A DNA stretch of 64,000 nucleotides from a virus (IMGVR_UViG_3300030376_003859:878-64877), one strand, 5' to 3'; numbered from the stretch's first letter, positions 7,201 through 29,142 are shown. Notes: generated by a model from the sequence alone, not told the origin. A program made the numbers and translations.

Positions 7201-7449
7201 TCCGGCTTCGCCAAGTGCGTCTCCAAATCTATTTACTCTAAGACCTGTTTTTTTACTAAATAGTTCATCTTCTTTTTTAGCGTTTTCTCTATATGATAAT
7301 CCCAAAGCGTGTTGAGCCTTAGTTACTTCATTTACCTTTTTAGTAATAGCAGGAACTTTTGTTTCCATGTTGCCTAATGATTTCATAAAAAGGTCAATAC
7401 TGCCCGTTAATCCAAGTATTGACTTGTTTAATTGGCGTATTTCGGACAT
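4294..7449 (-). CDS. Tail tape measure protein
   Basis: About 1050 aa with long Lys/Glu coiled coil, hydrophobic Gly/Ala/Ile helical region and C-terminal RATGG...VGENGPEL motif typical of TMPs; follows the chaperone pair. ATG placed after GGTGA SD. Confidence 0.9.
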   Translation of the reverse strand: MSEIRQLNKSILGLTGSIDLFMKSLGNMETKVPAITKKVNEVTKAQHALGLSYRENAKKEDELFSKKTGLRVNRFGDALGEAGKKMTTFNKRTTIVSESIKQLNKTNDKFNLGFKSFSTYTKMGGNAFEYLAEFISSGREEITVFGIEVAKARKFLYGFMPAGTFRTLNKFSSMLQLAGSQYRRFFTDGKAARAEVELLKEAIKVAEEGEELDGLIERLAELEVPDSIFVKAFRGFQKLTKTVSKPLVTRIDVDMKDARKILKKNSFSNIFFTKGQLKHRARHELKQLKSPFKKIKKSFAKNFLLNLTPTKKLQVKQLKEAVKTARKFDITNVSQGALKQKQKELGALEGVKDDNVVALQSSFSSLGEEVIKAEQKLKKIEKSIAGGNPAAGFKKVDAQRKLNELLTEETKVQKELQGAKDDYARDLEAVIKFADVGGIMQQENAQLIMKSEKEINSIRTKGLQGYRKKLVNLGDSYKKHNAEFDVGTVKYDKAISRTQKIIDSIDVKKIEEEMERIGETAEKAAKREIELKEKIANYKPNINTNKIDTTAKQLELMKTELAALEKVKGREEELNQLLVKRENAVKKIEGFKLKSKGQLALKDEIKLQKDNIKLGKKALADAEKTISASNKRIKQSEKAKKKIQKDFNSQIASAENMAEKLKLTKDMQKEIAKEDVNIDAATKDKNEAVKNQEAAIVEIDKDQLKLEGLEEQLDVLKEMREAALDKMLQKHPFFKGINKLRKGFKQILPMLGQALKVFMMGFIYVSIAILGILALVKIFGPIIKDTIGTIIKVLAPIIGFTMGAIGLIFDGVKQVFGAFFGDGTMTDAIDGLLKIGLGILGTLLGLALAALAAVGTLLMAGIGHAIKRVGLFFKEMFSSWKGFLKNFKVILAIVGIIAALFFGWPVALAVVVGAIILKVITMAIDPILSIIRAIKNGIEKLNPKKRVKKFFGGIRDKVTGRATGGIVGIGETTLVGENGPELIKLPAGSKVYTNTRTKQMTRSNSLNNNNTINITINAKDTSDAEMRRIAEKVGRLVNNSINRNTGMSGIR

Positions 7450-7454
7450 ATTAA

Positions 7455-7661
7455 TCACTTATGTTTTTTCATTTGCTTATCCATTTCTTCGGATTCTATT
7501 TCTTTAACTGCGCTGTGAACGGCTAACAAGTCCATAACTAACCCTGCTGGCATTTTATATATTTCAAGGGGGCTTATAGATAATGCTTTCGCTAATGTAT
7601 ATACAACGATTAATGAAGCGTCTTTAGGTTCGGCTTTACCTCCCCTCATTACCCGCTTCAA
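7455..7661 (-). CDS. Tail assembly chaperone, C-terminal (gpT-like) part, expressed by -1 frameshift
   Basis: Lies in the -1 frame of the upstream chaperone, directly after an A AAA AAC slippery site; directly precedes the TMP. Confidence 0.8.
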   Translation of the reverse strand: MKRVMRGGKAEPKDASLIVVYTLAKALSISPLEIYKMPAGLVMDLLAVHSAVKEIESEEMDKQMKKHK

Positions 7662-8078: not shown

Positions 8079-8213
8079 TTATTCTGCTGATTCAGTATTA
8101 GTTTCTTCCATAGCCTTTGATTTCTTTGGTTTCTTCTTCTTTGCTGATTCAGCCTCTAATTTCTTTTTCAAAATTAATGCTCTTTTATCTTGCTTAGTAT
8201 AAATTTTAATCAC
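8079..8213 (-). CDS. Small basic protein (about 41-44 aa)
   Basis: Manual ORF (V)IKIYTKQDKRALILKKKLEAESAKKKKPKK...; GGTGA SD overlaps the tail tube stop. Confidence 0.55.
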   Translation of the reverse strand: MIKIYTKQDKRALILKKKLEAESAKKKKPKKSKAMEETNTESAE

Positions 8214-9844
8214 CCCAATAGAACATTATCTGTTACAACTGAACAAGCATGTAGATTTCTTGGCTTAATTGTTGAACTAAAAGAAATCGGCCCTTTATCG
8301 TCAGGGATAGTAATTTCAGTTGTGTCAAGGAAATAATCTTTAAAGTCTAATGTAATTCTTTCATTTGTATCGGGCTTTGTGAAAACAAAAACTACATGAT
8401 TTGCACCTGTGTTTTCTGTTTCATTTAGCATTTCTTTGAATAATGAATCATCAGTAACTACTGCTTCAAAAGTAATTTCATAAGAGCGTTGTGCAGGAAT
8501 ACCTTCTTTCATATCCCTGTGTCCACCCATATATCTTTTATCCATCAAGTTATTATTCATAGTAATACTTACTGAATTAACTTTCAAAAATTGTTGGCCA
8601 AATGCGCTAAATGTTCCTTGTGAAAAGAAGAAAGGTGCGCCATTAGCCAATCCTGCATTAAAGTTAAACAAATTAGCATTGTTTGTTTGACCTGCTCTTG
8701 AAACATAATCTGTTTGTAAAGAGGCAGAAGCATATAAATCACTAATACTATCAACTACTCTTGCATTAATATCCATATTCATTTTTAATTCTTCACCTTC
8801 TGCGGCTTCTATTGTTAATGAATTAATACGGCAACCTCTTGCGATTCTAACAAAGTTATTAGATTCATCAAGAGGGCTTGGACTTGCACCAATATTTGCG
8901 TTTGTAGTCAAACTTGCAGGGTCTTTAGCCATTGATTGTTCCATACTAAATGAAGGCAATTGGTCTGTATTCAATTCTCCAAAAGTATATGTAATTAAGT
9001 TGCTTGAACCATTTGTTCGGGCTAATGCTTGAACTGTTCCCGTAGCAACTAAACTGTGGTCTAATGGAGGAACAACAACATTACTTCCTTTTTGTGTTCT
9101 ATAAAATAATGGGCCGGATTGATTAATACCGCTTGCACTACCATTTGAACCTTCAATAAACACAACATCATTTTCTTCTTCTGCGGAATTAGCAGTTGTA
9201 GAAATTTCAACGGGTTCTTCATCTGCTAAACTTGCACCACCGACATTTTTTAAAGCAAAACCACCAAGAGCGTTTGCGGTATAAGTAATTGCTGAACAAG
9301 CACCTAATGTATAATATAGCCATACTCCGGTATTTGCGACTAAAGCAAGAGAACCATTATCAGCAGTTCTAATTCCTTTGTATTGGAAAGTAAAGTTTCT
9401 TGTTCCACCAAGACCAAGATTCATTTGTTTCAATTCTTGGCTTAAATTAGGAAATGTGACTGATTCCATCAATCCCAAGTAATTATCTCCTAATAGAGTC
9501 TGCCTACCGCCAACTTCGGGGTGTGGTGAAGGAGAACCATATGCTCTTAATAGTGCATAAGCAGGAGTTCCCGAACCAACATTACTTGATAGAGTAATAG
9601 TATCTACTGCGTTTGAAGCAACAGTATGGCTTGAAATGAGAGCGTTAGCGGCAGTATAAATATCAATATTACAACCAATGTAAATATTAGGAACAAATTT
9701 AAAAACCGCATCAAAAGCATTATCCGGTGTTACTGTTACTGTTGATACTCCGCCACCCGTTCCATTAAGAGGAATATAAATATCCTGTTCGGGTATCAAT
9801 GTTGTGCTTGCTCCACTTCCTAAAAAAATTTCGTTATTTACCAT
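8210..9844 (-). CDS. Major tail (tube) protein
   Basis: 544 aa; C-terminal tube-type pattern (KVNSVSITMNNNL...RSYEITFEAVV...ISFSSTIKP); upstream of chaperones and TMP; no sheath gene seen. Confidence 0.8.
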   Translation of the reverse strand: MVNNEIFLGSGASTTLIPEQDIYIPLNGTGGGVSTVTVTPDNAFDAVFKFVPNIYIGCNIDIYTAANALISSHTVASNAVDTITLSSNVGSGTPAYALLRAYGSPSPHPEVGGRQTLLGDNYLGLMESVTFPNLSQELKQMNLGLGGTRNFTFQYKGIRTADNGSLALVANTGVWLYYTLGACSAITYTANALGGFALKNVGGASLADEEPVEISTTANSAEEENDVVFIEGSNGSASGINQSGPLFYRTQKGSNVVVPPLDHSLVATGTVQALARTNGSSNLITYTFGELNTDQLPSFSMEQSMAKDPASLTTNANIGASPSPLDESNNFVRIARGCRINSLTIEAAEGEELKMNMDINARVVDSISDLYASASLQTDYVSRAGQTNNANLFNFNAGLANGAPFFFSQGTFSAFGQQFLKVNSVSITMNNNLMDKRYMGGHRDMKEGIPAQRSYEITFEAVVTDDSLFKEMLNETENTGANHVVFVFTKPDTNERITLDFKDYFLDTTEITIPDDKGPISFSSTIKPRNLHACSVVTDNVLLG

Positions 9845-9870: not shown

Positions 9871-10386
9871 TTACGAGGGAATGTTTAATGCATATCTTTT
9901 TGCTTCTAATGTAATCTTATATCCGAAAAGCCGTTTTGCTCGGTCATTACTTTCACTTCTTGCGCCTAAAAATAATTGTTGAAATTTAGAACCGTCGTTT
10001 GCAGTATAACCATGCCTCTTGCTTTCAATCACTCTACGCAATATCAAGTATATAGACATTAGCCTATCTTTTCCGTATGAAGAATCTAATCCCGCCCTTT
10101 CATCATGTAATACTCTTATGTGTAAAGTAAATGTATATGATTCATTTCTAACATCATAAGTTACAGTTGGATATTCAATATTTTGTGAATCTTCAAAAAT
10201 AACAATTGTTGCAGGGGTTCTGCTTAAATCAACTCTTACTCCCTTATTAGCAGTAGTTGTTCTAATATCAATAAAATCCGGAATAATTGCATGGGAAACA
10301 TCAATATCTCCCGAACTAACTAATGCAGTAGCATTAGACGACCATTGAGTTGATAATAGGTCTATAAGAAGAGAGACTTCATCAAT
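9871..10386 (-). CDS. Tail terminator/completion protein (171 aa, apparent ATT start)
   Basis: The frame of the 62-aa track ORF is open upstream to ATT GAT GAA at 10386, 6 nt after a GGAGGT SD; position between adaptor and tube. Confidence 0.65.
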   Translation of the reverse strand: MDEVSLLIDLLSTQWSSNATALVSSGDIDVSHAIIPDFIDIRTTTANKGVRVDLSRTPATIVIFEDSQNIEYPTVTYDVRNESYTFTLHIRVLHDERAGLDSSYGKDRLMSIYLILRRVIESKRHGYTANDGSKFQQLFLGARSESNDRAKRLFGYKITLEAKRYALNIPS

Positions 10387-10577
10387 GACAATACCTCCTG
10401 TTCTATTGTTTTGTTGATATATCTATTATATGATTGTAATGCATTCTCCATTACTTCCTTATCACTAAATGAAATATCATAGCCTAATTGTTCGGATAAT
10501 TCTTTCATAGCAAGTTGTCTTTCCTTTTCTATTTCATATAACTCATGGAGTTTTTTAACATTTATTTCAACTGCCAT
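10362..10577 (-). CDS. Hypothetical neck-region protein
   Basis: 71 aa helical protein with GGTGA-type spacing. Confidence 0.55.
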   Translation of the reverse strand: MAVEINVKKLHELYEIEKERQLAMKELSEQLGYDISFSDKEVMENALQSYNRYINKTIEQEVLSLMKSLFL

Positions 10578-10582
10578 GTTAA

Positions 10583-11887
10583 TCAATCCAAGAAATATAC
10601 AAGGTCGCCTTTACCCTTTAGAATATCCATTCCCTCTTTTCGGAGTATATCATATTTTTCTTTAGTAGAAATATTTGCTCCTGTTTCTGCAATTAATATG
10701 CTTTGGTCGTCGTGCCTTATTATTTCAGCCGAAACTAATTTTGTAGCGGCCTCATGTATAGCAGAAGGAACTCTACCATCACCTGCAACATAAGAAACTA
10801 TTACAGAATTATTAGCATGGAATGGATAATCATTGAAAAAGAATATTCGGCCTTCTTCACCAATTGTCCAAAAAGAACCAAGCCTATTCAAATCTTCTTT
10901 GTCTGTAAAATCAACAAGATTACAAACTGTTGGTATTGTATCTGTTGCAGTAAATGTAAGAGCATTTGTTCCACTTGCTGACGCTGGCGCACTTAATACA
11001 ACATTTGTTCCATCTGTAATTGAAGCAATAGTAATTGTTCCTGTGATGCCTGTTCCGCTAACAGTCATACCAACACCTAATTTAGATGAATCCGCAACAG
11101 TAAGAGCAGTTGATGAGTTAGCAGTAGTGCATGATTGTTTTATGGTTGCTTTTAATACACAATCTGCCCCATCATCACCGGAAAGTAGGGAGGAAATGAG
11201 AAGTTGCTTGCTATTATTCTTATCTTTTGAGGCATAGAAAAAGTCGGAAATGGATAGATTAGAAGAGGTTAGAGCCTTTGGAGCAGTTGCTCCTGTAAAA
11301 GAAGATGTAGCAGAAGGGAAGGATTCATTGATTAGTGCAGTAATCTCATCATTAGTGGTTTTTAATCCAAATGTATTACAAAATTCACTATTTGCTAAAT
11401 CAGTTATGTCATTCTCCGATAACAACTCAAAAGATACACCGCTATTTGGTAGTTGTAGTATTATTGAATTTAAATCTCTAAAATTATCAAGAAGATGTAT
11501 TTTTGCTTGTGCTGATGCTAACTCTTCATATGAACCGCCTTGCCAAACTAATAAGGAAACTATTTTTCTAACTTTCATTTGTTTTAGTTGAACAAATCCA
11601 ACATGGCCACCAAAGTATGTTTTATGTGGCCTTCTTGAAAACTCAAAGTTATGGTATTCGTCTTTAGTAATAATTGGTCTAAAGGAACGCTTGACTTTAT
11701 CATCAATAATTCCTTCAACTCTTTTTATTATATTTCCAACTTGAGCAACTGTTGGATAAGTGCTATTTGAAAAAGCAGGTATTTGTAATAGATTAGCGAC
11801 TTCTGTTGCATTAGTATAAAATCCCCTGCCTTGTGAATAGTCGGGATTTATTTCGGTAAAGTCGCTTGGCGATATGGTTGTTCCCAT
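10583..11887 (-). CDS. Head-tail adaptor (SPP1 gp15/HK97 gp6-like) with beta-rich insertion
   Basis: C-terminal VIVSYVAGDGRVPSAIHEAATKLVSAEII is typical of adaptors; N-terminal TEVANLL helix; Thr/Ser/Gly-rich insert. Confidence 0.75.
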   Translation of the reverse strand: MGTTISPSDFTEINPDYSQGRGFYTNATEVANLLQIPAFSNSTYPTVAQVGNIIKRVEGIIDDKVKRSFRPIITKDEYHNFEFSRRPHKTYFGGHVGFVQLKQMKVRKIVSLLVWQGGSYEELASAQAKIHLLDNFRDLNSIILQLPNSGVSFELLSENDITDLANSEFCNTFGLKTTNDEITALINESFPSATSSFTGATAPKALTSSNLSISDFFYASKDKNNSKQLLISSLLSGDDGADCVLKATIKQSCTTANSSTALTVADSSKLGVGMTVSGTGITGTITIASITDGTNVVLSAPASASGTNALTFTATDTIPTVCNLVDFTDKEDLNRLGSFWTIGEEGRIFFFNDYPFHANNSVIVSYVAGDGRVPSAIHEAATKLVSAEIIRHDDQSILIAETGANISTKEKYDILRKEGMDILKGKGDLVYFLD

Positions 11888-11892
11888 CGTTA

Positions 11893-13599
11893 TCACCCAA
11901 ATATTTTCTTTAATCTTCTAACATTTCTTTTTAGTTTGTTAATTTCTTTAGACAAAGCCCTATTACCTGCCCCTCTTCTAAATGGATTCAAATTATATTC
12001 ACCATGATTAACTACATATATTTTACATTCAACAAAAGCATTCGCAAATAGTTCTTCTGCATTAAAAGAATTAATTGAGTCATATTTGTATTCTTGGCCA
12101 CCGTAAGTTTCCATGCCTCTTATATTAGCCCCCGAAACTCCTTCCTGTGTTTCAAGAACTTGAAGATTAGTCTTGTAATTCTTTTTATCTTCATTAGGTA
12201 GTGCTTGATAGGTTAATTCGGAAATAGTTTCTCCGGTTTCTTTATGCTTAAATGCCTCTTCTGTTAATTCCATTATTTCTTCGTCTGTTAATGGTTTAGA
12301 AACTAATTTGTATTTTTTTCTTTCTTCAATAGGAAGGGCTTTGTATTTTTCCGGTGTTATTCTTTCTTCCGGATTTTTTTTATTTTCAGCATATCTTGTT
12401 TTTGAGTATTTTGCATCTTTTGTTTTTGTCGCTAGTGCGGTGGCTCTAAATGTATCTATATTCTTTCGTCTTGTTTTAATATTAGCCAGTATCTTTGCTG
12501 TAAATACTGTTGTTGGTTCATCAAGATACGGTTTTAATATTCTTAAGAATAAGTCTTGATTTTCTAATATAAATTCTTTTGATTCATCAAGTAAGTCTAA
12601 AACTATATTATTCATTGTTTCGCTTGGTTGCTTAAAATGATAATATTGTTCACCTAATATAATAATATCTTCATCTAACATTTCTTGAGTTCTTTTTAAA
12701 TCCTTCAATGCGACTAAGAAAGCCATTTCACTTTCTAAACCTTTACCTGTTATTTTGGTAGTAATTTGTTGTCCTTCATCTCTTTCAAATTTATCATCAA
12801 CTAATTTCATTGGTGTTAATACTGTTCCTTTAAACAAAGCCCCTATCTTTTTTAAGTCTTTATCGGACAAATCAAAAGCATGTTCTATAACTTCCGTTCC
12901 TACTTTTAATTGCGATGATTTCGGTTTAAAAGTAGCGGTCTGTCCTGTTGTTTCAAGAATATAATCGGCCTTTTCTGCCATTATTTTCCCTTCATCAATA
13001 GAAGGAAATAGTATCTGTATATGTGCATCTAATCTTGCATCTTGTTTTTTGTATGCTAAATTCCAACCATCGCCTTGTGAATTAACTCTTAATCTAACAT
13101 CATCGTCAATATATTTTTCTAAATCTCGACCATATCCAAGCGTAAATTCATCTTTAGGAAACTTCTCTTCAAAAGGGAATGGTGGTAAATTAACTTCGCC
13201 TTCTTTAGCAAATTCAAGCGCACCTGCGCCTTTTAATCTTGTTAATACTTTAGCATCAGTAAGGTTTTCAATTTTTTGGTCATCAATAAAATCTATATTG
13301 GCTTGATTAGTTTTTGTTTCTTTTTTACCTGACCTTATAGTTGAAAATTGTTTCCAGCCATCTTTATTTTCTAAAAGTGGTTTTAGAGGCTGTTGTAAAA
13401 CTTCCTCATAAATTTTTTTAAATTCACCCATAAACTCTTGTTCATTTAAACCGCTACCTTGAACACTTTCTTTTGCTCGCTTAATTTTAACCACAAAACT
13501 TCTATCCCCTGTGGAAAGAAAATCATTCATTTCCGTCTTAAGAAAGTTAGCGGAATTTGGTAAGGATAAGTTTTGATTACCCCATCTAAAAGCGACCAT
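11893..13599 (-). CDS. Hypothetical 568-aa charged protein
   Basis: Long ORF co-oriented with the structural block; no motif recognised. Confidence 0.6.
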   Translation of the reverse strand: MVAFRWGNQNLSLPNSANFLKTEMNDFLSTGDRSFVVKIKRAKESVQGSGLNEQEFMGEFKKIYEEVLQQPLKPLLENKDGWKQFSTIRSGKKETKTNQANIDFIDDQKIENLTDAKVLTRLKGAGALEFAKEGEVNLPPFPFEEKFPKDEFTLGYGRDLEKYIDDDVRLRVNSQGDGWNLAYKKQDARLDAHIQILFPSIDEGKIMAEKADYILETTGQTATFKPKSSQLKVGTEVIEHAFDLSDKDLKKIGALFKGTVLTPMKLVDDKFERDEGQQITTKITGKGLESEMAFLVALKDLKRTQEMLDEDIIILGEQYYHFKQPSETMNNIVLDLLDESKEFILENQDLFLRILKPYLDEPTTVFTAKILANIKTRRKNIDTFRATALATKTKDAKYSKTRYAENKKNPEERITPEKYKALPIEERKKYKLVSKPLTDEEIMELTEEAFKHKETGETISELTYQALPNEDKKNYKTNLQVLETQEGVSGANIRGMETYGGQEYKYDSINSFNAEELFANAFVECKIYVVNHGEYNLNPFRRGAGNRALSKEINKLKRNVRRLKKIFG

Positions 13600-13612
13600 A
13601 TTTATTTCCCCC

Positions 13613-14266
13613 TCACATTAGCCATTTAGCCCAAGCCGCACCTTTCTGTATTGCCGAACCTAATCCTAAACCGCTTTGTGGGGGTTCATAACTCATTTGT
13701 CCTTGAGCATCTATCCAATATGGCCTACCATATCCATCTGTTCCCGAAGGCGGAATAGGATAACCACTACCATTATTCATAGCATTATTCATTTGATTAA
13801 ATTGTTGAGTATTTCCGGTTACATTTGCTAATGCCATTCCTGCTGATGGTTGTTGCATATTTCCTCCACCGCTAAATCCTTGTGATTCAAGATACTGTTG
13901 TTTGGCTAATTTTCTTTGATTAACTACTTCTGTATTAATTGCAGAATTTAACAACTTTTGAATATCTAAATCAATATTTTCTTGAGTAATTTTCTCAAAT
14001 TCTCTCATAGCATCGGCATTAATTGTTATAGAAGAACCGTTAGATGTAAATGCTAATTTACTAAGCATTTGAGAAACAACTCGCTGAACTACATCTTCCA
14101 TTAGTTTTTCAAGAGCAGTTAAGAAATGCTCACCATGATATTGAAAGAACTCTTCAACATGGTTATCTTGTAAAGATAGTAAGTTATTTACATTCTTGAA
14201 TTGTTGGTCGCCTTGTGCTTGAACTGCGTTCATTACTGTTCCATTACTTGTTCCTAATAATCCCAT
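13613..14266 (-). CDS. Gln/Gly/Asn-rich protein with amphipathic C-terminal helix
   Basis: Ends GLGLGSAIQKGAAWAKWLM; lies in the GTPase gene cluster. Confidence 0.6.
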   Translation of the reverse strand: MGLLGTSNGTVMNAVQAQGDQQFKNVNNLLSLQDNHVEEFFQYHGEHFLTALEKLMEDVVQRVVSQMLSKLAFTSNGSSITINADAMREFEKITQENIDLDIQKLLNSAINTEVVNQRKLAKQQYLESQGFSGGGNMQQPSAGMALANVTGNTQQFNQMNNAMNNGSGYPIPPSGTDGYGRPYWIDAQGQMSYEPPQSGLGLGSAIQKGAAWAKWLM

Positions 14267-14268
14267 AA

Positions 14269-14931
14269 TTAATCCTCCTTATTTTCTATTGGTTCTTCGT
14301 TTGTTGCCTTAATATTGTGCTTTAGCATTAGATGATTCATTCTGTCTGTCATTATGTTTATTTCTGTAATTAATCGTATTACTTCATCGGTAGCCGTCTT
14401 GTTATCTGCTAAAGCGGGTGGGGTTATAAACCAACCTGCGTTAGTTAATGACAAAACATCTTCTCTTGTTAAACTTTTGATTGGGCCACTTTTTAGTATC
14501 TTTGGCATTTTAGGTTTAAACGCTTTAAAATCTAATCCATGTTTATCTGCAAGTATTTGTTGTTGTAGCATTTCTAACTGCATATAATGTGATGCGTGTT
14601 TAGGACAATATGTTCCTCTTAGTGGCCTTCCTTTAATTACTCCATCTAAAGGAATAGGTGGCCTCATGTAATCTCCTTGTTCCCAAATATGATGATACCC
14701 GCAAACTACGCACCTATCTTTTAAATTAAATTTTTTACCATATTTAATTCCTATAAATTTTTTAGGTTCTGCTTTTAACACATTAATAAGTTCCTTTTGT
14801 TGTTTCTTTGGTTTAAAAGTTATAAACTTATATTCTTGAACAACCCCACTTGCCCTTGCTTGTTGTAAGGGGTTTAATGTTGGGTTAAACTGTTGCGGTG
14901 CATTTTGTCCTATCAATTGGTTATTATACAT
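14269..14931 (-). CDS. Zn-binding hypothetical protein
   Basis: CVVCGYHH...CPKH motif, Gln-rich N-terminus, C-terminal helix; directly downstream of the GTPase. Confidence 0.6.
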   Translation of the reverse strand: MYNNQLIGQNAPQQFNPTLNPLQQARASGVVQEYKFITFKPKKQQKELINVLKAEPKKFIGIKYGKKFNLKDRCVVCGYHHIWEQGDYMRPPIPLDGVIKGRPLRGTYCPKHASHYMQLEMLQQQILADKHGLDFKAFKPKMPKILKSGPIKSLTREDVLSLTNAGWFITPPALADNKTATDEVIRLITEINIMTDRMNHLMLKHNIKATNEEPIENKED

Positions 14932-14941
14932 TTTCTATACC

Positions 14942-15610
14942 TCAATAATCTTTTATCATCGTCATTACGCCTCTATATACCATTTCGGGGTCGGATTTTG
15001 CCGATACTATATATTTGAAACAAGGTATTCCCTTGTCGTTCAACTGTCTCATTCCATACTTAAAAGGTTCAAATATTTTATGTTTATCTATGGTTTGGCC
15101 TTCTTCTAATGGATATTTTTCTCCCCATATGTCATATTTATTAGCCCATATCCCGATAGCCATTGGATAATCCGATTCTCTTTTTCTTCTACCTGTTGGC
15201 CACAAATCCGACACAATAGTATCAACTAAAAACTTCCATGCTACTTGATGGTCTAAGTTTGCTTCATTATCTAAATGCCTATGGTCTATCATAAAAATAA
15301 TATATTTAACCCTGCGCTTTTGCATATCTTTGACCCATTCTTTCCAATAAATCGCTTCACCGCCTATATCGGCACTTTTTATTGTATGAGAATCGCCATC
15401 AATTTTTACATTCTTTCTTGATGCTCTATGTAATCCTACTGTTCTTTGATTTATTTGAGGCACTTCGCCTCTTGTTCTTAATTGGTGGCTTAATGTTGTT
15501 TTACCAACCATAGTTGCTCCATAGACTCCAAAATTAATAGCGTGAACTTTCTTCCAAAAGCCGATAACTGCTTCACCAACTAATATAGCAAAGCCGGTCA
15601 TTAATGACAT
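14942..15610 (-). CDS. Small Ras-superfamily GTPase (Arf/Sar1-like features)
   Basis: G1 GATMVGKT, G2 QRTVG, G3 DIGG, G4 NKYD, G5 SAK in correct order and spacing; hydrophobic N-terminal helix. Confidence 0.9.
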   Translation of the reverse strand: MSLMTGFAILVGEAVIGFWKKVHAINFGVYGATMVGKTTLSHQLRTRGEVPQINQRTVGLHRASRKNVKIDGDSHTIKSADIGGEAIYWKEWVKDMQKRRVKYIIFMIDHRHLDNEANLDHQVAWKFLVDTIVSDLWPTGRRKRESDYPMAIGIWANKYDIWGEKYPLEEGQTIDKHKIFEPFKYGMRQLNDKGIPCFKYIVSAKSDPEMVYRGVMTMIKDY

Positions 15611-15614
15611 TTAA

Positions 15615-16166
15615 TCACCCGAAGTATTTATCTAACATATTTTTCATATGTTCTTTTGTTTCCATTACATCTTCATCTAATGATAGTTCCATTCCTGCTG
15701 CACTTCTAAAATATCCTGTAATTTCAGGATAGTCATATTCCGTTGCGTCATCTATTAAATTCATTAACTCCGTTGCTTTCTTTTTTACTATACTGTCGGG
15801 TAGATATTTGTATTCTATATCTTCATCATGAGAAATGCCTCTTGGCATCCCCATTTCCTTTTTGTTCCTTATGTTTCTATTAACGGTATATTCTTTATCG
15901 CCTTCTAGCCATTTTTCTTTATTTGTTTTCAAGGCTTGCTTTATCATAGGTTTTCCTTCATCTTTTATTGAATATATTTTAGACCCAAAAAAAGCATAAA
16001 TCAATGCTTCGTCTAAAGAAGGAGTCCAATATTCGGTATCTTCTTTTCCTTGTGTTCCTTGAAATAATTTACTGTAAGTATCAATGTAATCCTTTATTGG
16101 GGAATCATCTAAATCAAAAATAGTAGATTGTATTTTATAAGGTGATTTGAGAATGTTTTTCCACAT
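15615..16166 (-). CDS. WxxILK-tagged protein, possible ADP-ribosyltransferase-like fold
   Basis: Starts MWKNILKS; LFQGT...YWTPSLDEALIYA resembles the HGT...YxTxSxxxAxxYA pattern of HYE-clade ARTs. Confidence 0.4.
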   Translation of the reverse strand: MWKNILKSPYKIQSTIFDLDDSPIKDYIDTYSKLFQGTQGKEDTEYWTPSLDEALIYAFFGSKIYSIKDEGKPMIKQALKTNKEKWLEGDKEYTVNRNIRNKKEMGMPRGISHDEDIEYKYLPDSIVKKKATELMNLIDDATEYDYPEITGYFRSAAGMELSLDEDVMETKEHMKNMLDKYFG

Positions 16167-16167
16167 A

Positions 16168-16386
16168 TTAATGACCCCATAAATCCGATACCCTGTCTAT
16201 AATCCAACCCATTATATTAATATCGAATACGCCCATTATATTACCAATAAGAAAAGCGGATAAAGCACCGCAACTTCCCCAAAACCACGCTCTCATTTTC
16301 AAAAAGAAAACATCGGCAGAATGCGCTCTTGATTGGTTATAAGCATAATCCGAATCCGAGAACCCCATTAAATCCCCAAAGACCAT
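16168..16386 (-). CDS. Small membrane protein
   Basis: Hydrophobic segment AWFWGSCGALSAFLIGNIMGVF. Confidence 0.6.
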   Translation of the reverse strand: MVFGDLMGFSDSDYAYNQSRAHSADVFFLKMRAWFWGSCGALSAFLIGNIMGVFDINIMGWIIDRVSDLWGH

Positions 16387-16397
16387 TCTTTCACCGC

Positions 16398-16781
16398 CTA
16401 TTGTAGTGCGGCTAAGAACTCATTTCCGACAGTATTCTCTTCTTCTTCGGAAATACTTTGATAAAGATTAGTATTATACTGTCGTGCGCTTTCACGCATT
16501 TTCTGTCTTTGTTGTTCGTCTCTTGCTTTTCTTTCCCAAAAGGCCGCTATCTTTCTGTCAAGAAGCCACATTTCTATCTTGTCATTTAAGACTAAATCAA
16601 ATATGGCTTTCATAACCATGATTGCACCTATTGTTCCTAATCCAAACAAAACCGAATGGGCTAATGCTCCATAAGGAAATCCTGTTCCAAATTGAGCATA
16701 CGCCCAAACATTTGTTCCACTCAATGCTCCGACAAAAAGTATAGTCATAACTAAACGGGTATCTTGGCTTAACGCTGGCAT
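16398..16781 (-). CDS. Two-TM membrane protein with C-terminal coiled coil
   Basis: Two hydrophobic stretches followed by a charged helix (WERKARDEQQRQKMRE). Confidence 0.65.
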   Translation of the reverse strand: MPALSQDTRLVMTILFVGALSGTNVWAYAQFGTGFPYGALAHSVLFGLGTIGAIMVMKAIFDLVLNDKIEMWLLDRKIAAFWERKARDEQQRQKMRESARQYNTNLYQSISEEEENTVGNEFLAALQ

Positions 16782-16790
16782 AATAAAACC

Positions 16791-17069
16791 TCAAGCAAAT
16801 TCAATAGAAACTGCAACTTGACCTGCATCTTCTTCAAAGAATAATCCATTTGAACAGATTACTCCATGCATATCAAATTCAACTGTTTGATTAGCGGATA
16901 AAACAATTCTTGCTAATTCTTTACCACTTGCCGCACTTGCATTATCCCACACTTTTATAGTTGCGGATGAACCCCCAACTTCACAAGCATGAATAGAAAT
17001 CAATTTACACTTTCCGGAATAAACTACTGCGCTTCCGGTTAATACTCCACTACTTCTACAACTCGGCAT
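16791..17069 (-). CDS. Small beta-sandwich virion (head decoration/spike-like) protein
   Basis: 92 aa, all-beta pattern, downstream of the MCP. Confidence 0.5.
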   Translation of the reverse strand: MPSCRSSGVLTGSAVVYSGKCKLISIHACEVGGSSATIKVWDNASAASGKELARIVLSANQTVEFDMHGVICSNGLFFEEDAGQVAVSIEFA

Positions 17070-17127
17070 ATCTCTATCTCCTTCAAATCATGAACAGGGG
17101 CTTTCCCTATTAATGCTATGGGTCTAA

Positions 17128-17448
17128 TTATTCCTTTAAAGCAGACTTTTTAGGTTTAGCAGGGGCTTTCTTTGCTTTTGTTTTAACAGGTAATAACTCT
17201 TTGCACAATTCATCATGTGTAGTTATTTCTTTACCAAAAGCCTTAGTTAGCCTTGTAAGCATTTTAGGGTCAATTTGTTTCAAATCTTTCCTATCGCTTT
17301 CAGTAAAAGTAATATCTAAGTTAGAATCACCATATACTCTAAGAGCATCAATAGCCTCTACTTCAATAGAAGCGTCTCTATTTAGTATTTCACCAAACAT
17401 TAACAAAGTTTTAGACCTTGCTCCTTTGGCTAATTTAATTGTTGCCAA
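17128..17448 (-). CDS. Hypothetical head-module protein
   Basis: TTG start after GGGTGA; Lys-rich tail. Confidence 0.55.
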   Translation of the reverse strand: MATIKLAKGARSKTLLMFGEILNRDASIEVEAIDALRVYGDSNLDITFTESDRKDLKQIDPKMLTRLTKAFGKEITTHDELCKELLPVKTKAKKAPAKPKKSALKE

Positions 17449-17459
17449 CTAAATCACCC

Positions 17460-17795
17460 TCAAAGCAATCCATAAACTCTAACTCTAACTATTCCTTCAT
17501 CAGCCGTTCCCGATAATTGAGCCGACCCTGTTGAAAGAATAATTTTAGCACTACTAATGGATTCATATGCTCCTGTATTAGAAACAACGGCTCTTGCTGA
17601 TTGACCTATCTCTTCAACTCCCGTTACCATCAATTGAGTTATTTGACTCAATCCGACAGAAGCCGCAGTTAGAGTTATTCCACCTTGAACATAGTTAGTG
17701 ATATTTACAATGGCATCAACCATATATTCATCACCAACGGCTTTAGGCTTTGTAAAACCTTTATGGTCTGCTAACAAACTTACTGTATGTGCCAA
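17460..17795 (-). CDS. Putative capsid decoration/cement protein
   Basis: Immediately after the MCP; NYVQGGITL...VGLSQI...VRVRVYG pattern seen in decoration proteins. Confidence 0.55.
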   Translation of the reverse strand: MAHTVSLLADHKGFTKPKAVGDEYMVDAIVNITNYVQGGITLTAASVGLSQITQLMVTGVEEIGQSARAVVSNTGAYESISSAKIILSTGSAQLSGTADEGIVRVRVYGLL

Positions 17796-17805
17796 CTAAA
17801 TCGCC

Positions 17806-19158
17806 TCACAGAAGGTTTGTAATTTTGCCTTGACCCTTGAAGTATGAACAGCCCATTTCTCCCATTGTTCGGTAAAGAGCCTTGTTTCCAAGTGTTCCGA
17901 CACCGAATGGGTTTCCGTTTGAAATACCATCTTCAAAGTATTGAGTTGGCTTCATAACAGATAGCCACAAATGGTCTGTATCAAGGAAAAGCATATCACT
18001 AATCAAAGAAGAGTTTGTTCCTGTTGAAGTCATAGCGGCAACCGGAATCATTGGTATGTCGTAGTAAGTTGAAACTCTAAATCCTACTTCTTGACCCTTT
18101 ACGCCTCTTACTCCATTAACAGTTGGAACAATTTCTTTTCTGTCCATGAATCTTTCTTGTGCTTGTAGTAAGTCGGAAATAGTTTGTAGAGTATCATATC
18201 CTGTTAGAATAACCTTTGGAGAACCACCTGCAACTCTTAGTCTTCTAATCATATCGTTTAGAACAGTTAGAGTTAATTGTCGTGCTTCTGCTGAAAGGTA
18301 GCCATCACCGAAAGAAACTTCGGAATCAAGATATTCATTTCCTGCATCGCTTCTTTGCTTTCCGTAAAGATGGTCAATTGCTTGGTCAGTAGCACTATCA
18401 ACAAGGTTTCCACCGTTGTTATCTGCTAATTCGGCAATTTCATCCGAGTTAGAAATAATCTTCAATAGAGAAGTATATCCTCTATCAATGGCATTTGCAG
18501 TATTATATGCAGTTGTTGGAGAATAGTTTTCCAAAGGCATAACAAGCATTTGGTTTTGAACTTCTGCGTGATGCTTGCCCATATCCTCTCTTAATTGCGC
18601 TCTAATATCGCCAATTCCATCATCAATAGAAGCCATTTCCATAGCCAATTCGCTGAAAGAGAATTGATGTGCAATAATCTTAGGGCTTGTAAATAGTGTA
18701 TCATACTCCGGTGCAATAGAAATCAATCCATCAGTATTAGAATCTAATGAAGCGTTTTCAGGAACACCACCAATTCTGTCTGCTCTAAGTGCATCTTCAC
18801 CATATAGAGAATCAGCCAAAGCAGTATTTGAAGCGGCAGAAATATCCAATTTGTTTCCTGCTCCACCTGCGGGTCTTTTCTTCAAAATTCTCCAACCACT
18901 TGATGAATAAGGTCTTTTTGAAATAACCGATAGTGCGTTACATTCTCGGTTTAGCATAGACCATACTTTTTGGCCGTAAATCTTGTTGTAAAGATTTGCG
19001 TTAATGCCCGATGGTGCGCTTAACGAGCCATCGTGTGCAGTATGAATACCTGCTACTGTTCCTGCGGCCTTAAGCAATTGATTGCTAATATGGCCTGTTG
19101 CGCCTGTTCCATAGGTTTGTGCTTCTAAATCTGCTATTGTGTTAATATATCCTGACAT
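17806..19158 (-). CDS. Major capsid protein (HK97 fold)
   Basis: 450 aa after protease/scaffold; PKIIAHQFSFSELA...QLREDMGKHH, KVILTGYDT and YRTMGEMGC match the HK97-fold layout. Confidence 0.9.
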   Translation of the reverse strand: MSGYINTIADLEAQTYGTGATGHISNQLLKAAGTVAGIHTAHDGSLSAPSGINANLYNKIYGQKVWSMLNRECNALSVISKRPYSSSGWRILKKRPAGGAGNKLDISAASNTALADSLYGEDALRADRIGGVPENASLDSNTDGLISIAPEYDTLFTSPKIIAHQFSFSELAMEMASIDDGIGDIRAQLREDMGKHHAEVQNQMLVMPLENYSPTTAYNTANAIDRGYTSLLKIISNSDEIAELADNNGGNLVDSATDQAIDHLYGKQRSDAGNEYLDSEVSFGDGYLSAEARQLTLTVLNDMIRRLRVAGGSPKVILTGYDTLQTISDLLQAQERFMDRKEIVPTVNGVRGVKGQEVGFRVSTYYDIPMIPVAAMTSTGTNSSLISDMLFLDTDHLWLSVMKPTQYFEDGISNGNPFGVGTLGNKALYRTMGEMGCSYFKGQGKITNLL

Positions 19159-19159
19159 C

Positions 19160-20362
19160 TTAATAACCTCCTACCATTTTATGAATATCCGACCATTCCA
19201 TTTCGGCCAAATCATCCATACTTGGGAGTTCAATTGTTGCCTCTTCTTGTGCTTTTAGGATTGTTTCCTTTTCAGCAGTTAGAGACTTTCTTAGTGCGGT
19301 AAATTCATCCTTTAGAGATGCAATTTCACTTGCCGCATCATATTGAGACTTTGCCAAAATAGATTCTTTTGCAGAAACTTCTCGGTTAAATCTTGATTCA
19401 AATGACTTTTGAAGGTTGTCGTAAGCCAACTTTTCAAGTTGTTCTTGACGGTAAGCCTCATATGCTTTCTCAATGTTTCCAACTGACAAATCAAGAGTTT
19501 CTAATTCGCTGTTGTCAAATGCTTTAACAACGGGCAAATCGGATGCTTTTGGGTTGCCATTATCAATAACAACTCTATCGGCAGGTTCGCCAATTTCAAT
19601 TCCACCAGCATCAAGAGTGTTTAGAACGGCTTTATTAGAATCATCCATATATTCCTCTTTTTCTTCTTCAACTTCTTCTTTCATGTAATCGCCTTTTTCC
19701 GTCATTTCGTCTTCGGGCTTTTTCATGTCCATTTTGTCTTCTTCTTCTTCCTTGCGTAGAGTATTGACTTCTGCCATTAGCGCATCTAACTCTTCAAGTG
19801 CTTTTTCTATCTTGCTCATATTTTTCACTTCCTGTTTTGTGTTTTTTTCTTGTTTTAAAATATCAAATCTTGCTTCGGGGTTAATTCCTTTTTCACATAT
19901 TGTAACTTCATGTAATTCAAGTTTGCTAATTTCATTGTAATCTCCTAATTCTTGGTGGTTTTTCTTTACTTTTTCTAAAGCCTGTCCTCCAATACTAAAT
20001 GACCTCAATGAACCTTTTCTTATGCCTCTATTAATTTCTTTGGCTTTTTCTATATCGTCTCTTAACTTAATTACTACAAAGAATCCTACATCATCTACTT
20101 CGGTTTTCCATAGTCTCCCTGTTTTGTCTCTATATGATTTTACTACTTCTCCAACTTGAACATTAGAATGATTTGTCATTACATTTCTAAATTTTGGGTT
20201 CTCCATATATTTTTTAACTGCTTCGTTAAGTGCTTTGAGTGTGATTAAGTCATTTTGTTTATCAACGATTTCGATGCTTGCATATCCTCCAATCATTAAA
20301 TCGTCTTGTGCTTTAAGAATCCTGAAATCGTTTCTGCTTCTATTCATTACAGATGATACCAT
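19160..20362 (-). CDS. Prohead protease fused to scaffold domain
   Basis: GYASIEIVDKQND, SFSIGG and LHEVTICEKGINPEARF motifs of the HK97-type protease; acidic coiled-coil C-terminal half. Confidence 0.9.
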   Translation of the reverse strand: MVSSVMNRSRNDFRILKAQDDLMIGGYASIEIVDKQNDLITLKALNEAVKKYMENPKFRNVMTNHSNVQVGEVVKSYRDKTGRLWKTEVDDVGFFVVIKLRDDIEKAKEINRGIRKGSLRSFSIGGQALEKVKKNHQELGDYNEISKLELHEVTICEKGINPEARFDILKQEKNTKQEVKNMSKIEKALEELDALMAEVNTLRKEEEEDKMDMKKPEDEMTEKGDYMKEEVEEEKEEYMDDSNKAVLNTLDAGGIEIGEPADRVVIDNGNPKASDLPVVKAFDNSELETLDLSVGNIEKAYEAYRQEQLEKLAYDNLQKSFESRFNREVSAKESILAKSQYDAASEIASLKDEFTALRKSLTAEKETILKAQEEATIELPSMDDLAEMEWSDIHKMVGGY

Positions 20363-20390
20363 TCCTCTCAACCCTTTCTTATACTATCCA

Positions 20391-20405: not shown

Positions 20406-22916
20406 CTAATTTTTAGCCGGAATTGGCAATTTACTGTATTTATCTTCATATATATTCCATAAACCTTTATCGCCTTCTGTATCAGCAGGTTCTTGTTTAT
20501 ACCCTGTCCATGCAAGCCACATTTCTTTTCCTTCAACCTTGATTACTCTAAAATGCATCTTAGTTTCAAATTTATTACCTTTCAAAAAGTATTCATGATA
20601 GCCTTCTTTTTGGACACCTAACTCAATATCCCCTGCATCAACTACCTTTCCTCTTTCAACATTTTTAGCCACTTCTGCCGGATATTTACCTGCCGCACCA
20701 AACAAATCAAACATTTCTTCTTGATTATCTAAGTCAATAGTCCAAAATAAACTTTCATCTTCAAGTTTAATACCTAATGTTATGTTGTTATCTTCTCTTG
20801 AATATATTTTAAACAAACCCTTTCTGTTTTCTTTTGGGGTTTTATACTCTTTTTTAATCTCTTCTTCTTGCATAATTTTATCATCATCAGCATGAAGTTT
20901 CTTATCTTTAATTGAAATACCGTCTCTATTTTCCGCCCAATCTTTCAATTTAGTCTTTTTAGATTCTAACACATCTTCATAAATATCTTTATGCTTATCC
21001 TTCAAGAAATCATGAACATCATTTACTGTCTTATCTCCCATTGTTTTTAGATGTTGAAAAATAGCAACTGTTAATTGACTTGATTTAGTTTTCATTATTT
21101 CTTCTGCTTGGGCTTTCCACATATCTAAATCTGCTAAAGCATTCTTAGACATTAGATTATCTTCTTCAAAACCATAGATTACAAAACCATTCATATCCGA
21201 TTTCATGATTACATTTGTTTCACCATGTATGTAATCAGTTAATTTGATTCCCTTTGTGAGTGCTTCCACCTTATAATTAAGTGATTTTTTAGTATCTTGT
21301 GATAGAAGTTCAAGAGTAATCAGTTTATCGGGGTGTTCAACTTCCGGTATCTCAATTACCTTTGCTGAAAATAAACTAAAGCCTTCTCCCTTTTTCTTAA
21401 CTTCATCAACTTTAACTCTAACAATATCCCCAACATCAACCGCTACTTTAGTATTCAATGCTTTACCTACACCAAGATATTTTTTACCATCAATTTCTTG
21501 TCCTTCCATGTCATCAGGAATTGGCCCAACGCCCACAGTATATGAATAAAGATTGCTTTTCGTCTTTTTCTTATCTAAAACTATTACATCTAAATCAACA
21601 AACTTCTTCCATTTAATCCATTTAGGGTTCTTTTTAGTTCCGATATAATATGTTGAAGTTGCATCTTTAATAACAACTCCTTCGGAAGTGGGAATATCCA
21701 TCATTTCTTTTGCATACTTCTCAACATCTTTTAGACTATCAGCCTGTCTTGTATCTTTTTTAGAAGGATAAGCAATTGCTTGATTAGACTTTGATGAATA
21801 GTTATTGAATAAAATAGTCATTCTATCTTCTAACTCTTCATCTGTCAATGTTTGGGATTCATGTCGTATAATATCAAACACATGACACTTTAATTTAGCA
21901 TCTTTGTATTTGTTTTTAAAAACATGAGCAATAGTATCTGCTCTATGTAGTGCATCATCACCGTCAAAAAGAATTAACTCCCCATCTAAAATACAATCCC
22001 CGTATTCCTTTTTCTTAAGTTCCTCAACTTGGTCTTTACACTTATCAGTAATGTCTTTTTCATTATAAGAATAGATTTTAACCGAGCCATCTATTTTATG
22101 CAACTGTATTCTCATACCATCATATTTTTCTTGGACATACCAATTACCACTAAAGCCCTTTAACTCATTAATGTCGTCTATTTCAAATATCCTATACATT
22201 GGTTTATTAGGAACAATAAATTGAGAAATGGACTTTTCTGTTAATTCTTTTTGTGATTTCTCTAATCCTTCTATTTCTTTTAAGTCTGTCCATTCTTTCT
22301 CTTCATGTTGAGAAAAGAAAATAAGTTCTAATAGTTCCATTCCTGCCTTTACTTTCGATTCAACTTTCTTTGAGTCTTTTCCATCACCGTAATGCTCTAT
22401 AATATAGAGGGCAATATCATCCGATTCAAGGTCAAGTCCAACAAGACCCTCCGTTATTGTGTCGGGTTGCATACCTTTAATGGCTAAAATGTCCGGAGAT
22501 AGTGCTTTATTGTCGTCTCTTAGTGCATAATGAATGAATTTCACCATAGTTTCGGGATTATCTAACAATTCTTCAAGGACACTACCTTTAAACATTTCAG
22601 CGAAAGGGTCAGCAACTATTTTAGAAGAGTATCTAATGAGTTTTATTTTTTCAAACAGTTGTTTCGCTTCTCTTGATATTGGGTTTTTAACTTCTTTATT
22701 TTCCATTTCATCTTCATCAATAAAATTTCTTAACTCTTTACCTGCGGCATCTAATTCTTCATATGATTCTATAATTAAATCAACCGCTTTTCTCCAACGG
22801 CTTCCATATTCATCGGGGTCATGAACGGCTGATAAATAAGCGACTCTTGTTTTTTCAAAGAGTCTTAGTATTTCTTGAGAAGGCTGTTTATCCTTCTCAA
22901 TAGAGCCGAGTTTCAT
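20406..22916 (-). CDS. lig: ATP-dependent DNA ligase with long N- and C-terminal extensions
   Basis: Motif I EKYDG, LDGEL, HVFDII, EGVVIK, KWIKWKK, then an OB domain (LDVIVL...GDIVRVK). Confidence 0.9.
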   Translation of the reverse strand: MKLGSIEKDKQPSQEILRLFEKTRVAYLSAVHDPDEYGSRWRKAVDLIIESYEELDAAGKELRNFIDEDEMENKEVKNPISREAKQLFEKIKLIRYSSKIVADPFAEMFKGSVLEELLDNPETMVKFIHYALRDDNKALSPDILAIKGMQPDTITEGLVGLDLESDDIALYIIEHYGDGKDSKKVESKVKAGMELLELIFFSQHEEKEWTDLKEIEGLEKSQKELTEKSISQFIVPNKPMYRIFEIDDINELKGFSGNWYVQEKYDGMRIQLHKIDGSVKIYSYNEKDITDKCKDQVEELKKKEYGDCILDGELILFDGDDALHRADTIAHVFKNKYKDAKLKCHVFDIIRHESQTLTDEELEDRMTILFNNYSSKSNQAIAYPSKKDTRQADSLKDVEKYAKEMMDIPTSEGVVIKDATSTYYIGTKKNPKWIKWKKFVDLDVIVLDKKKTKSNLYSYTVGVGPIPDDMEGQEIDGKKYLGVGKALNTKVAVDVGDIVRVKVDEVKKKGEGFSLFSAKVIEIPEVEHPDKLITLELLSQDTKKSLNYKVEALTKGIKLTDYIHGETNVIMKSDMNGFVIYGFEEDNLMSKNALADLDMWKAQAEEIMKTKSSQLTVAIFQHLKTMGDKTVNDVHDFLKDKHKDIYEDVLESKKTKLKDWAENRDGISIKDKKLHADDDKIMQEEEIKKEYKTPKENRKGLFKIYSREDNNITLGIKLEDESLFWTIDLDNQEEMFDLFGAAGKYPAEVAKNVERGKVVDAGDIELGVQKEGYHEYFLKGNKFETKMHFRVIKVEGKEMWLAWTGYKQEPADTEGDKGLWNIYEDKYSKLPIPAKN

Positions 22917-25927: not shown

Positions 25928-26316
25928 TATTTTTTCCTCCTGTCTGCAATACTAATTGATGTTAAACCTACTTCTCCTTGAGAAGTAATTAGAATATCAA
26001 TTAATTCATCTTCTGTTAAATCATCTAACATATCTTGAATCTTCTCCATTAAATCAAAACGAGTTGAATTTGCTAAATATTCTCTTGTATATTTATCTTC
26101 GCTGGTTTCATCAAGTGGTTCTTTTTCATCTAAATACCCACCTTCTCTTCCACCCGCTATTGCTTGAGTATGCCTACTTTTATTTGGTCGGGGGTCGCCA
26201 CCCGCCATAGGTGTTGGAGACTTTCTTCTTTGTTTTCCTTCTCTAACGCCTTCTTCTCTTAATTGTCTCAAATTCTTGAAACTTCTTTTATTTTTCAAAA
26301 TACTTAACCAATTCAT
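25927..26316 (-). CDS. WxxILK-tagged basic protein
   Basis: Starts MNWLSILKN; directly downstream of the portal. Confidence 0.6.
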   Translation of the reverse strand: MNWLSILKNKRSFKNLRQLREEGVREGKQRRKSPTPMAGGDPRPNKSRHTQAIAGGREGGYLDEKEPLDETSEDKYTREYLANSTRFDLMEKIQDMLDDLTEDELIDILITSQGEVGLTSISIADRRKK

Positions 26317-28938: not shown

Positions 28939-29142
28939 TCACTTCGGTTTATGTGTGTAAATATCTCCATCCTTGTGCATAAAGATTTTACCTTCTTTTT
29001 CTAACTTAGATAAGACTCTTTTAATTTCTGATTCTTCTCCGAATTGTTTTAGGTTTTTCATTCCTAATGCTCCGCCTTCTTTTTTTATTTCAGCAAGAAT
29101 TTTTTCTTCCATATCTTCTTTTAATATGTTTTTCCAAGTCAT
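28939..29142 (-). CDS. WxxILK-tagged winged-helix-like protein
   Basis: Starts MTWKNILKE; EIKRVLSKLEKEGKIFMHKDG is a wHTH-like recognition helix and wing. Confidence 0.55.
   Translation of the reverse strand: MTWKNILKEDMEEKILAEIKKEGGALGMKNLKQFGEESEIKRVLSKLEKEGKIFMHKDGDIYTHKPK

Follow-up and report, generated by a model that had tools for sequence, protein, structure and literature searches.

A five-gene cassette around an Arf-family-like GTPase in tailed viruses of marine archaea, a candidate membrane-remodelling or exit system

Introduction

How does a head-tailed virus leave an archaeal host that offers no peptidoglycan-type target? The egress players of archaeal head-tailed viruses have been described as 'completely uncharacterized' (2024 review, PMC10791045). 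The question is raised anew by IMGVR_UViG_3300030376_003859:878-64877, a stretch of 64,000 nucleotides (nt) of viral DNA (the window, in what follows), in which five genes at 13613-16781 centre on a small guanosine triphosphatase (GTPase). A sequence-only reading of the window had seen in them a late module, composed of an Arf/Sar1-like GTPase and membrane partners, that may perform lysis or exit in a cell lacking peptidoglycan. Here we follow that proposal through homology and profile searches, structure prediction and comparison with related viruses. Gene order establishes a virus-owned five-gene cassette, fixed in at least four magrovirus lineages, around a predicted GTP switch that resembles the Arf family but has diverged far from it. 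A part in lysis or exit is plausible, and release of virions is the role that we prefer for it.

By homology the window belongs to a magrovirus, one of the tailed viruses that infect Marine Group II (Poseidoniales) archaea, because the 401 homologues of its GTPase in a set of 5.8 billion proteins sit on marine contigs (up to ~96 kb) and include gp088 of Poseidoniales virus YSH_150918 (75% identity). The searchable magrovirus literature makes no mention of a GTPase, and the five-gene unit is likewise undescribed there.

Results

A five-gene cassette with a fixed gene order

The cassette reads as follows in its direction of transcription.

16398-16781, minus strand: gene 1, membrane protein of 127 amino acids (aa)
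16168-16386, minus strand: gene 2, single-pass membrane protein of 72 aa
14942-15610, minus strand: gene 3, Arf-family-like small GTPase of 222 aa
14269-14931, minus strand: gene 4, orphan Cys-motif protein of 220 aa
13613-14266, minus strand: gene 5, Gln/Gly/Asn-rich protein of 217 aa

The intergenic gaps of the cassette measure 1-13 nt, and from 11500 to 19500 the coding strand shows no terminator-like site. The same order, namely a coiled-coil protein with two transmembrane (TM) segments, a one-TM protein, the GTPase, the Cys-motif protein and the Gln/Gly-rich protein, is found in each of four virus lineages that diverged deeply, in which the GTPases are ~33-40% identical to that of the window; the synteny check thus bears out the five-gene module of the sequence-only reading. 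The other lineages (lineages 2 to 4) were fetched through distant GTPases, of which the P0133-like gave 80 loci (contigs up to 118 kb), the P0191-like 4 loci and the P0132-like 11 metagenome loci. There the relative of the Cys-motif protein has 243-347 aa and the Gln/Gly-rich protein 190-272 aa. A further small two-TM protein often follows gene 5.

The surroundings of the cassette change. In the window it is flanked by capsid and neck (head-tail adaptor-like) genes. In lineage 2 an open reading frame (ORF) of 2200-2690 aa lies upstream, and a helix-turn-helix protein and the large terminase (~8 kb off) lie downstream. Lineage 3 has a full-length group II chaperonin, or thermosome, just upstream (L165:5820-7481, L164:6250-7785; Cpn60_TCP1, E 1e-133 to 1e-140). 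Since the flanks differ between lineages while the five genes persist, the five genes travel as a unit.

We estimated selection as the ratio of nonsynonymous to synonymous substitution rates (dN/dS), given below as medians against 41-74 close relatives; the values are rough because dS is near saturation.

GTPase: median dN/dS 0.05
127-aa membrane protein: median dN/dS 0.08
72-aa membrane protein: median dN/dS 0.095
Gln/Gly-rich protein: median dN/dS 0.136
Cys-motif protein: median dN/dS 0.140
Capsid protein: median dN/dS 0.18
Adjacent 92-aa ORF: median dN/dS 0.31

All five cassette genes are under purifying selection no weaker than that acting on the capsid gene. Mean amino-acid identity is 80-85% for the four partners, 85% for the capsid protein, 57-62% for the small flanking ORFs and 90.5% for the GTPase, the last figure being inflated because the loci were chosen by GTPase similarity.

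The GTPase is nearest to the Arf family

The protein of gene 3 was described by the sequence-only reading as a complete G1-G5 GTPase with a hydrophobic N-terminal helix, and every motif is found in its place on the minus strand.

15545-15610, minus strand: N-terminal hydrophobic/amphipathic helix, residues 1-22
15497-15520, minus strand: G1, GATMVGKT, residues 31-38
15434-15448, minus strand: G2-like, QRTVG, residues 55-59
15356-15370, minus strand: G3, DIGGE, residues 81-85
15335-15337, minus strand: Trp92
15131-15142, minus strand: G4, NKYD, residues 157-160
14996-15004, minus strand: G5, SAK, residues 203-205

Residues 1-22 have a Kyte-Doolittle value of 1.63, and residues 3-22 are helical in the AlphaFold model, which is confident (predicted local distance difference test, pLDDT, 88).

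Searched by itself, the window protein is hard to place. Its best Pfam matches, MMR_HSR1 (19 bits) and Roc (17 bits), are both below cut-off; Pfam Arf (PF00025) gives no match at E <= 0.1 and none reaching its curated threshold. NCBIfam returns the generic small_GTP domain only, PHROGs return no family, and a single-sequence search of the PDB returns no match. The family tells more. Across an alignment of 16 members, reaching down to 23% identity, G31, G36, K37, T39, D81, G84 and D109 are invariant and W92 is nearly so, and NKxD, SA and the N-terminal hydrophobic stretch are conserved throughout. All 16 begin with a helix of small, hydrophobic and aromatic residues that terminates in basic ones (Lys/Arg); the hydrophobic moments of these N-termini (0.24-0.53) are comparable to those computed for the N-termini of Arf1 and Sar1.

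Used as a profile against the PDB, this alignment places Arl3 (E 1.6e-8) and the Asgard GerdArfR (8oun, 2.2e-8) at the head, with Arl5 and Arl8 also ranking above Ras (~1e-6). Pfam Arf is the strongest family seen among the 16 and is matched by seven of them; P0170 (57 bits), P0181 and P0169 exceed its threshold over their full length. In a census of GTPase relatives, DxGG with Trp at D+11 occurs in 164/164, as do G1 and NKxD. This combination of DxGG and Trp is the switch II signature of Arf, Sar and G-alpha proteins, and in the HMMER alignment the viral switch II Trp falls on that of Arl3. In its modelled fold the protein resembles Arf-family structures more than those of Ras, Rab, Ran or translation-type GTPases, and the nearest named clusters in the ESM Atlas are all annotated Arf. 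By profile, predicted fold and motifs the GTPase is nearest to the Arf family, in agreement with the Arf/Sar-like call made from the window.

It is not a canonical Arf. Identity to Arf-family proteins (Arf1, Arf6, Arl1, Arl3, Arl8; Asgard ArfR and GerdArfR1, PDB 8OUN/8OUM) is 15-19%, and, unlike these, the viral protein is encoded by a tailed prokaryotic virus, lacks the Trp that precedes the G3 Asp, and is ~40 residues longer, with insertions after switch II and before G4. Because of the missing Trp, the insertions and a Glu for the catalytic Gln, we call it Arf-family-like. To our knowledge, myristoylation is not expected in archaea.

The family is narrow: when 1.84 billion cluster representatives were searched exhaustively, only 65 relatives appeared at E <= 0.001, none of them named by any source. 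IMG/VR holds 263 related stretches; with the 401 homologues and the low dN/dS values, this goes well past anything that chance would give. Of the distant relatives, P0169, P0181 and P0146 had no counterpart in IMG/VR and P0180 had none in JGI metagenomes, while P0170 is a singleton. Small Ras-like GTPases had been called unusual in tailed viruses, and so they appear: tblastn with two family members gave no match in 50,697 GenBank phage records, a set that may lack close records, and in a viral structure library the best 50 matches listed are all small GTPases of giant eukaryotic viruses. The latter (mimivirus Rab, PDB 5XC5) are Rab, Ras or Ran proteins taken from eukaryotic hosts, whereas the protein studied here is Arf-like, belongs to an archaeal tailed virus and has no relative found in the presumed host order.

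Two small membrane proteins

Hydropathy agrees with the earlier suggestion that two small membrane proteins accompany the GTPase, assigning gene 1 one strong and one weak segment and gene 2 a single one.

16698-16754, minus strand: gene 1, weak hydrophobic segment, residues 10-28
16602-16670, minus strand: gene 1, strong TM segment, residues 38-60
16467-16601, minus strand: gene 1, helical (coiled-coil) tail rich in Lys, Arg, Glu and Gln, residues 61-105, predicted cytoplasmic
16207-16287, minus strand: gene 2, TM segment, about residues 34-60

Each of the two occurs in all but one of 80 close relatives. The other predicted membrane segments on the coding strands of the window are confined to a tape-measure-like ORF and one ORF of 82 aa. 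In three other lineages the slot of gene 1 holds a two-TM protein with a charged coiled coil, those of lineages 2 and 3 being homologous to each other (hhalign probability 97.9%), and the slot of gene 2 holds a one-TM ORF of 69-99 aa.

The 127-aa protein has a generic holin-like build: a TM segment, a weaker segment and a charged tail. Class II phage holins, with two TM segments and a charged C-terminal tail, share this overall build, and the protein lies in an operon called late. It differs from them in having neither a family match nor an endolysin partner and in belonging to a five-gene GTPase unit. No holin family matches it in Pfam or PHROGs; its PHROG matches are two of unknown function only (E 0.001-0.008).

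Two soluble partners

Genes 4 and 5 carry the following features.

14701-14712, minus strand: gene 4, CVVC
14596-14631, minus strand: gene 4, GRPLRGTYCPKH, with CVVC a possible Cys3His site
13970-13990, minus strand: gene 5, ITQENID, in the conserved central helical part
13616-13657, minus strand: gene 5, amphipathic C-terminus

The Cys-motif protein, spaced C-x2-C-x31-C-x2-H, is homologous across lineages (jackhmmer, 75, 80 and 4 loci; hhalign probability 94%, E 1e-7), and the pattern Cys...Cys...Cys-Pro-x-His is present in three of them. Only C74, G78, G101, Y108, P110 and L119 are invariant across lineages. In the window's lineage the protein may bind Zn. The sequence-only reading had named it a Zn protein; the Cys/His motif is indeed there, with the site itself presumptive and lost in one lineage. 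Neither Pfam, nor a profile search of the PDB, nor the ESM Atlas holds a relative, a chance-level HEPN match being the sole Pfam return at E <= 0.1. The AlphaFold model is poor (pLDDT 54), and a complex prediction of the GTPase with the Cys-motif protein, GTP and Mg scored 0.00, which we do not use as evidence either way.

The protein of gene 5 (10.6% Gln, 10.1% Gly, 9.2% Asn) ends in SAIQKGAAWAKWLM, amphipathic and Trp-containing. Homologues occur in three lineages (jackhmmer, 73, 48 and 4 loci), and ITQENID is common to the window's lineage and lineage 3. A profile search of the PDB gave chance-level matches only. The composition and the amphipathic Trp end had both been remarked on from the window; they are seen again, the Trp-rich end being specific to the window's virus group.

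The presumed host and the search for lysis genes

The thermosomes of lineage 3, searched with an alignment as query, find their best cellular matches in Poseidoniales genomes (41-44% identity). Across 151 Poseidoniales genomes the viral GTPase profile matched none, and recent capture of the GTPase from the host is ruled out for the genomes searched. OapB/ArvB was not found in the same 151 genomes. Pfam Arf, at E <= 0.001, also matched 0/151; this zero carries little weight, since the model also gave a match in 11 of the 14 control genomes, E. coli among them, and therefore cross-matches other GTPases, and the zero may reflect a first-pass filter rather than biology.

No Amidase_2 or Phage_lysozyme was found in five complete relatives (92.8-96.9 kb, CheckV 100%). 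This accords with the earlier supposition of a host without peptidoglycan, the presumed host order having no peptidoglycan-type target. Pfam names no holin or endolysin among the 20 window ORFs scanned; the earlier remark that neither is visible stands to that extent, with the qualification that the 127-aa protein is holin-like in build.

Comparison with ArvABC and COPII

The Arf-like GTPase ArvA of Haloferax, which has an amphipathic helix at its N-terminus, drives the budding of vesicles with a Zn-ribbon protein as its partner (PMC10927574), and enveloped viruses have been speculated to exploit the host small GTPase OapA (PMC10791045). ArvABC (OapABC), found in Haloferax, other Euryarchaeota and DPANN archaea, resembles the viral cassette in setting a small GTPase with an amphipathic helix in an operon with small partners, one of them with a Cys motif. 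However, no ArvB/OapB (PF09846) was found in the whole virus record, although the control rang in Haloferax and Methanosarcina; gene 4 has no match to DUF2072, the Zn-ribbon of ArvC; and no integral membrane partners belong to the ArvABC operon in its published description. In Methanococcoides (L246) OapB lies directly downstream of ArvA (E 4e-47). That ArvA has DTPG at G3 and EF-Tu and MMR_HSR1 as its best Pfam families, whereas the viral family has DxGG with Trp and Arf as its best. An hhalign comparison of the viral family with one Methanococcoides ArvA gives 97% probability (E 4e-11), a score generic for G domains. By these comparisons the viral cassette does not appear to be a member of ArvABC, which is its nearest functional precedent in archaea.

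Sar1, the GTPase of coat protein complex II (COPII), also has a long, unmodified hydrophobic/amphipathic N-terminal helix. Its G3 motif, which we take to be DLGGH, shares its His with the DIGGH of the lineage 3 viral GTPase. The cast of COPII, a membrane-bound guanine nucleotide exchange factor (Sec12), a zinc-finger GTPase-activating protein (Sec23) and the low-complexity region of Sec31, runs loosely parallel to the viral partners, by analogy only. Neither by sequence nor by profile does any viral partner resemble Sec12, Sec23/24 or Sec13/31, and the Cys/His site of gene 4 is not universal.

Gene setting and further observations

The record behind the window measures 64.9 kb (CheckV completeness 68%). 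G+C in the window is ~33%, and the minus strand carries all genes from 1 to ~49,400, including these assigned by Pfam.

26316-27956, minus strand: portal protein
20406-22916, minus strand: ATP-dependent DNA ligase of 836 aa, ligase core at residues 252-437
19160-20371, minus strand: prohead protease
17806-19158, minus strand: SU10-type major capsid protein
8210-9844, minus strand: tail tube protein

The ligase sits within the morphogenesis block, with the portal-side genes on one side of it and the prohead protease on the other, and its core is flanked by ~250 unassigned residues in front and ~400 behind. An ORF of 1054 aa (4294-7458, minus strand), which has no Pfam family and carries 4-5 strongly hydrophobic segments at residues 750-937, is probably the tape measure protein.

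Between the cassette and a 437-aa head-tail adaptor-like gene lies a highly charged ORF of 568 aa (11893-13599, minus strand). No other gene of the region varies nearly as much: in close relatives its length ranges over 346-861 aa and its mean identity is 39%, its neighbours being 80-90% identical in the same relatives; the position is a diversifying slot.

Between gene 2 and the GTPase gene lies one further ORF.

15615-16166, minus strand: accessory acidic ORF of 183 aa

Since just 4 of the 80 close relatives have a homologue, it is an accessory insertion, outside the conserved cassette. It has no Pfam, PHROG or PADLOC family, and PADLOC reports no defence family beyond a chance-level DrmB match. 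Lineage 4 has an unrelated acidic ORF of 256-260 aa at the same junction, which is therefore an insertion hot spot. The 183-aa ORF starts with an N-terminal tag of the MWKNILK type. The motif M(T/S/N)W(K/R)x(I)(L/V)(K/R) is common to five otherwise unrelated ORFs of the window (15615-16166, 28939-29142, 33935-34438, 44026-44316 and 44329-44784, all minus strand) and may serve all five as a tag for targeting or processing.

In many members of lineage 2 the giant ORF directly upstream of the cassette is a single frame (L111:37-8109, L118:1497-8108). In lineage 4 a TM protein of 196-204 aa with an extremely basic tail lies upstream (L249:5904-6518, L258:5927-6517), and three ORFs of 96-139 aa with hydrophobic segments lie downstream (10221-11274 in both loci).

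Discussion

Our preferred reading, which we hold tentatively, is that the cassette is a late membrane-remodelling or exit device around an Arf-like switch. Late accumulation would follow from gene position in the window's virus group, because the cassette appears there to be transcribed with head and neck genes. The GTP switch and its targeting to membranes are likewise inferred. In its GTP form the GTPase would free the amphipathic helix, which would then enter the host cytoplasmic membrane in the manner of Arf1 and Sar1. A site or receptor for the GTPase would be provided there by the two small integral membrane proteins, with the 127-aa protein offering its cytoplasmic coiled-coil tail, and the Cys-motif and Gln/Gly-rich proteins would be its soluble regulator and effector. 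The cassette would then bend, vesiculate or open the membrane of a murein-less host and so let virions out. We regard as rather doubtful the stronger proposal that magroviruses carry a minimal, self-contained GTPase membrane-remodelling machine (switch, two receptors, regulator and low-complexity effector) that would be the exit device, long sought, of archaeal head-tailed viruses and the first known Arf-type membrane system of a prokaryotic virus outside Asgard archaea and eukaryotes.

Several results weigh against an exit device of this kind. In other lineages the cassette adjoins a thermosome gene or the giant ORF, so its late position is that of a single lineage. The membrane proteins of the window's lineage reach at most 15% probability against those of the other lineages (jackhmmer and hhalign), and we therefore claim a match in position and architecture only. 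Lineage 4 has SSY(A/S)PD in gene 4, with Cys109, His112 and Arg102 replaced and Gly-Arg changed to Gly-Trp or Gly-Tyr; neither a Zn site nor an arginine finger therefore defines the protein, which argues against a classic ArfGAP-like arginine-finger regulator. We drop that idea for gene 4 because Arg102, Cys109 and His112 are not conserved; the protein has no Pfam ArfGap match, and it lacks the combination of a conserved Cys4 finger and an invariant Arg. The position of the catalytic Gln in the GTPase is occupied by Glu in the window's lineage, mostly by Gln (also Glu and Asp) in lineage 2 and by His in lineage 3, and this variation leaves the chemistry of hydrolysis uncertain. A complete relative carries 2-3 other small TM ORFs in another gene block, outside the cassette, so that alternative pore formers are possible.

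Other roles have to be set beside release. The GTPase and its membrane partners might mark a patch of host membrane for capsid assembly, chaperonin-assisted folding or packaging, with no part in exit. The cassette does lie among morphogenesis genes (capsid and adaptor here, thermosome in lineage 3, terminase ~8 kb off in lineage 2), the Gln/Gly-rich low-complexity partner could scaffold, and recruitment of effectors to membranes is typical of Arf-family switches. We nevertheless judge an assembly platform unlikely: membrane-bound assembly is not known for tailed viruses, no link to capsid, portal or terminase protein is detectable, and the neighbours change by lineage, so no adjacency to any one morphogenesis gene is conserved. 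It is distinctly unlikely, in our estimate, that the cassette acts as ArvA does in vesiculation unrelated to exit, shedding decoy vesicles that bear the receptor, blocking superinfection or altering division or envelope. Co-transcription with structural genes fits a late role over an early protective one, and the absence of OapB and DUF2072, the different G3 motif and the different best Pfam family set the cassette apart from ArvABC, despite the precedent of ArvA with its Zn-ribbon partner (PMC10927574) and the hhalign match to Methanococcoides ArvA (97%, E 4e-11). The host order itself, having neither OapB/ArvB nor a relative of the GTPase in 151 genomes, could be supplied by the virus with a function that it may lack.

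The high conservation of the 127-aa protein (dN/dS 0.08) invites the thought that it forms holin-like pores, with the GTPase only a timer or antiholin-like inhibitor, and a GTP switch could indeed set timing. We find this improbable, as no holin family in Pfam or PHROGs matches, no lytic enzyme is adjacent, and five co-conserved genes exceed the needs of a holin-antiholin pair. The sub-threshold MMR_HSR1 and Roc matches and the generic small_GTP call of the window protein would suit a soluble regulatory GTPase that acts on the ribosome, translation or another host target, its hydrophobic N-terminus packed and its neighbours unrelated. Such a protein is very improbable here: profile, fold and motifs speak for Arf rather than for GTPases of the Era or Obg type, every lineage retains the N-terminal helix, and the cassette with membrane proteins is kept in four.

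Taken as a candidate for virion release, the cassette offers the open question of how archaeal head-tailed viruses exit a concrete, bounded and strongly conserved set of genes. It also extends to the tailed viruses of prokaryotes the Arf-like membrane switches that are otherwise tied to eukaryotes and Asgard archaea and, functionally, to ArvA in Euryarchaeota, and so bears on the spread and evolution of GTPase-driven membrane remodelling. Should its function prove unrelated to membranes, the GTPase would still represent a new, virus-specific branch of small GTPases with four orphan partners.

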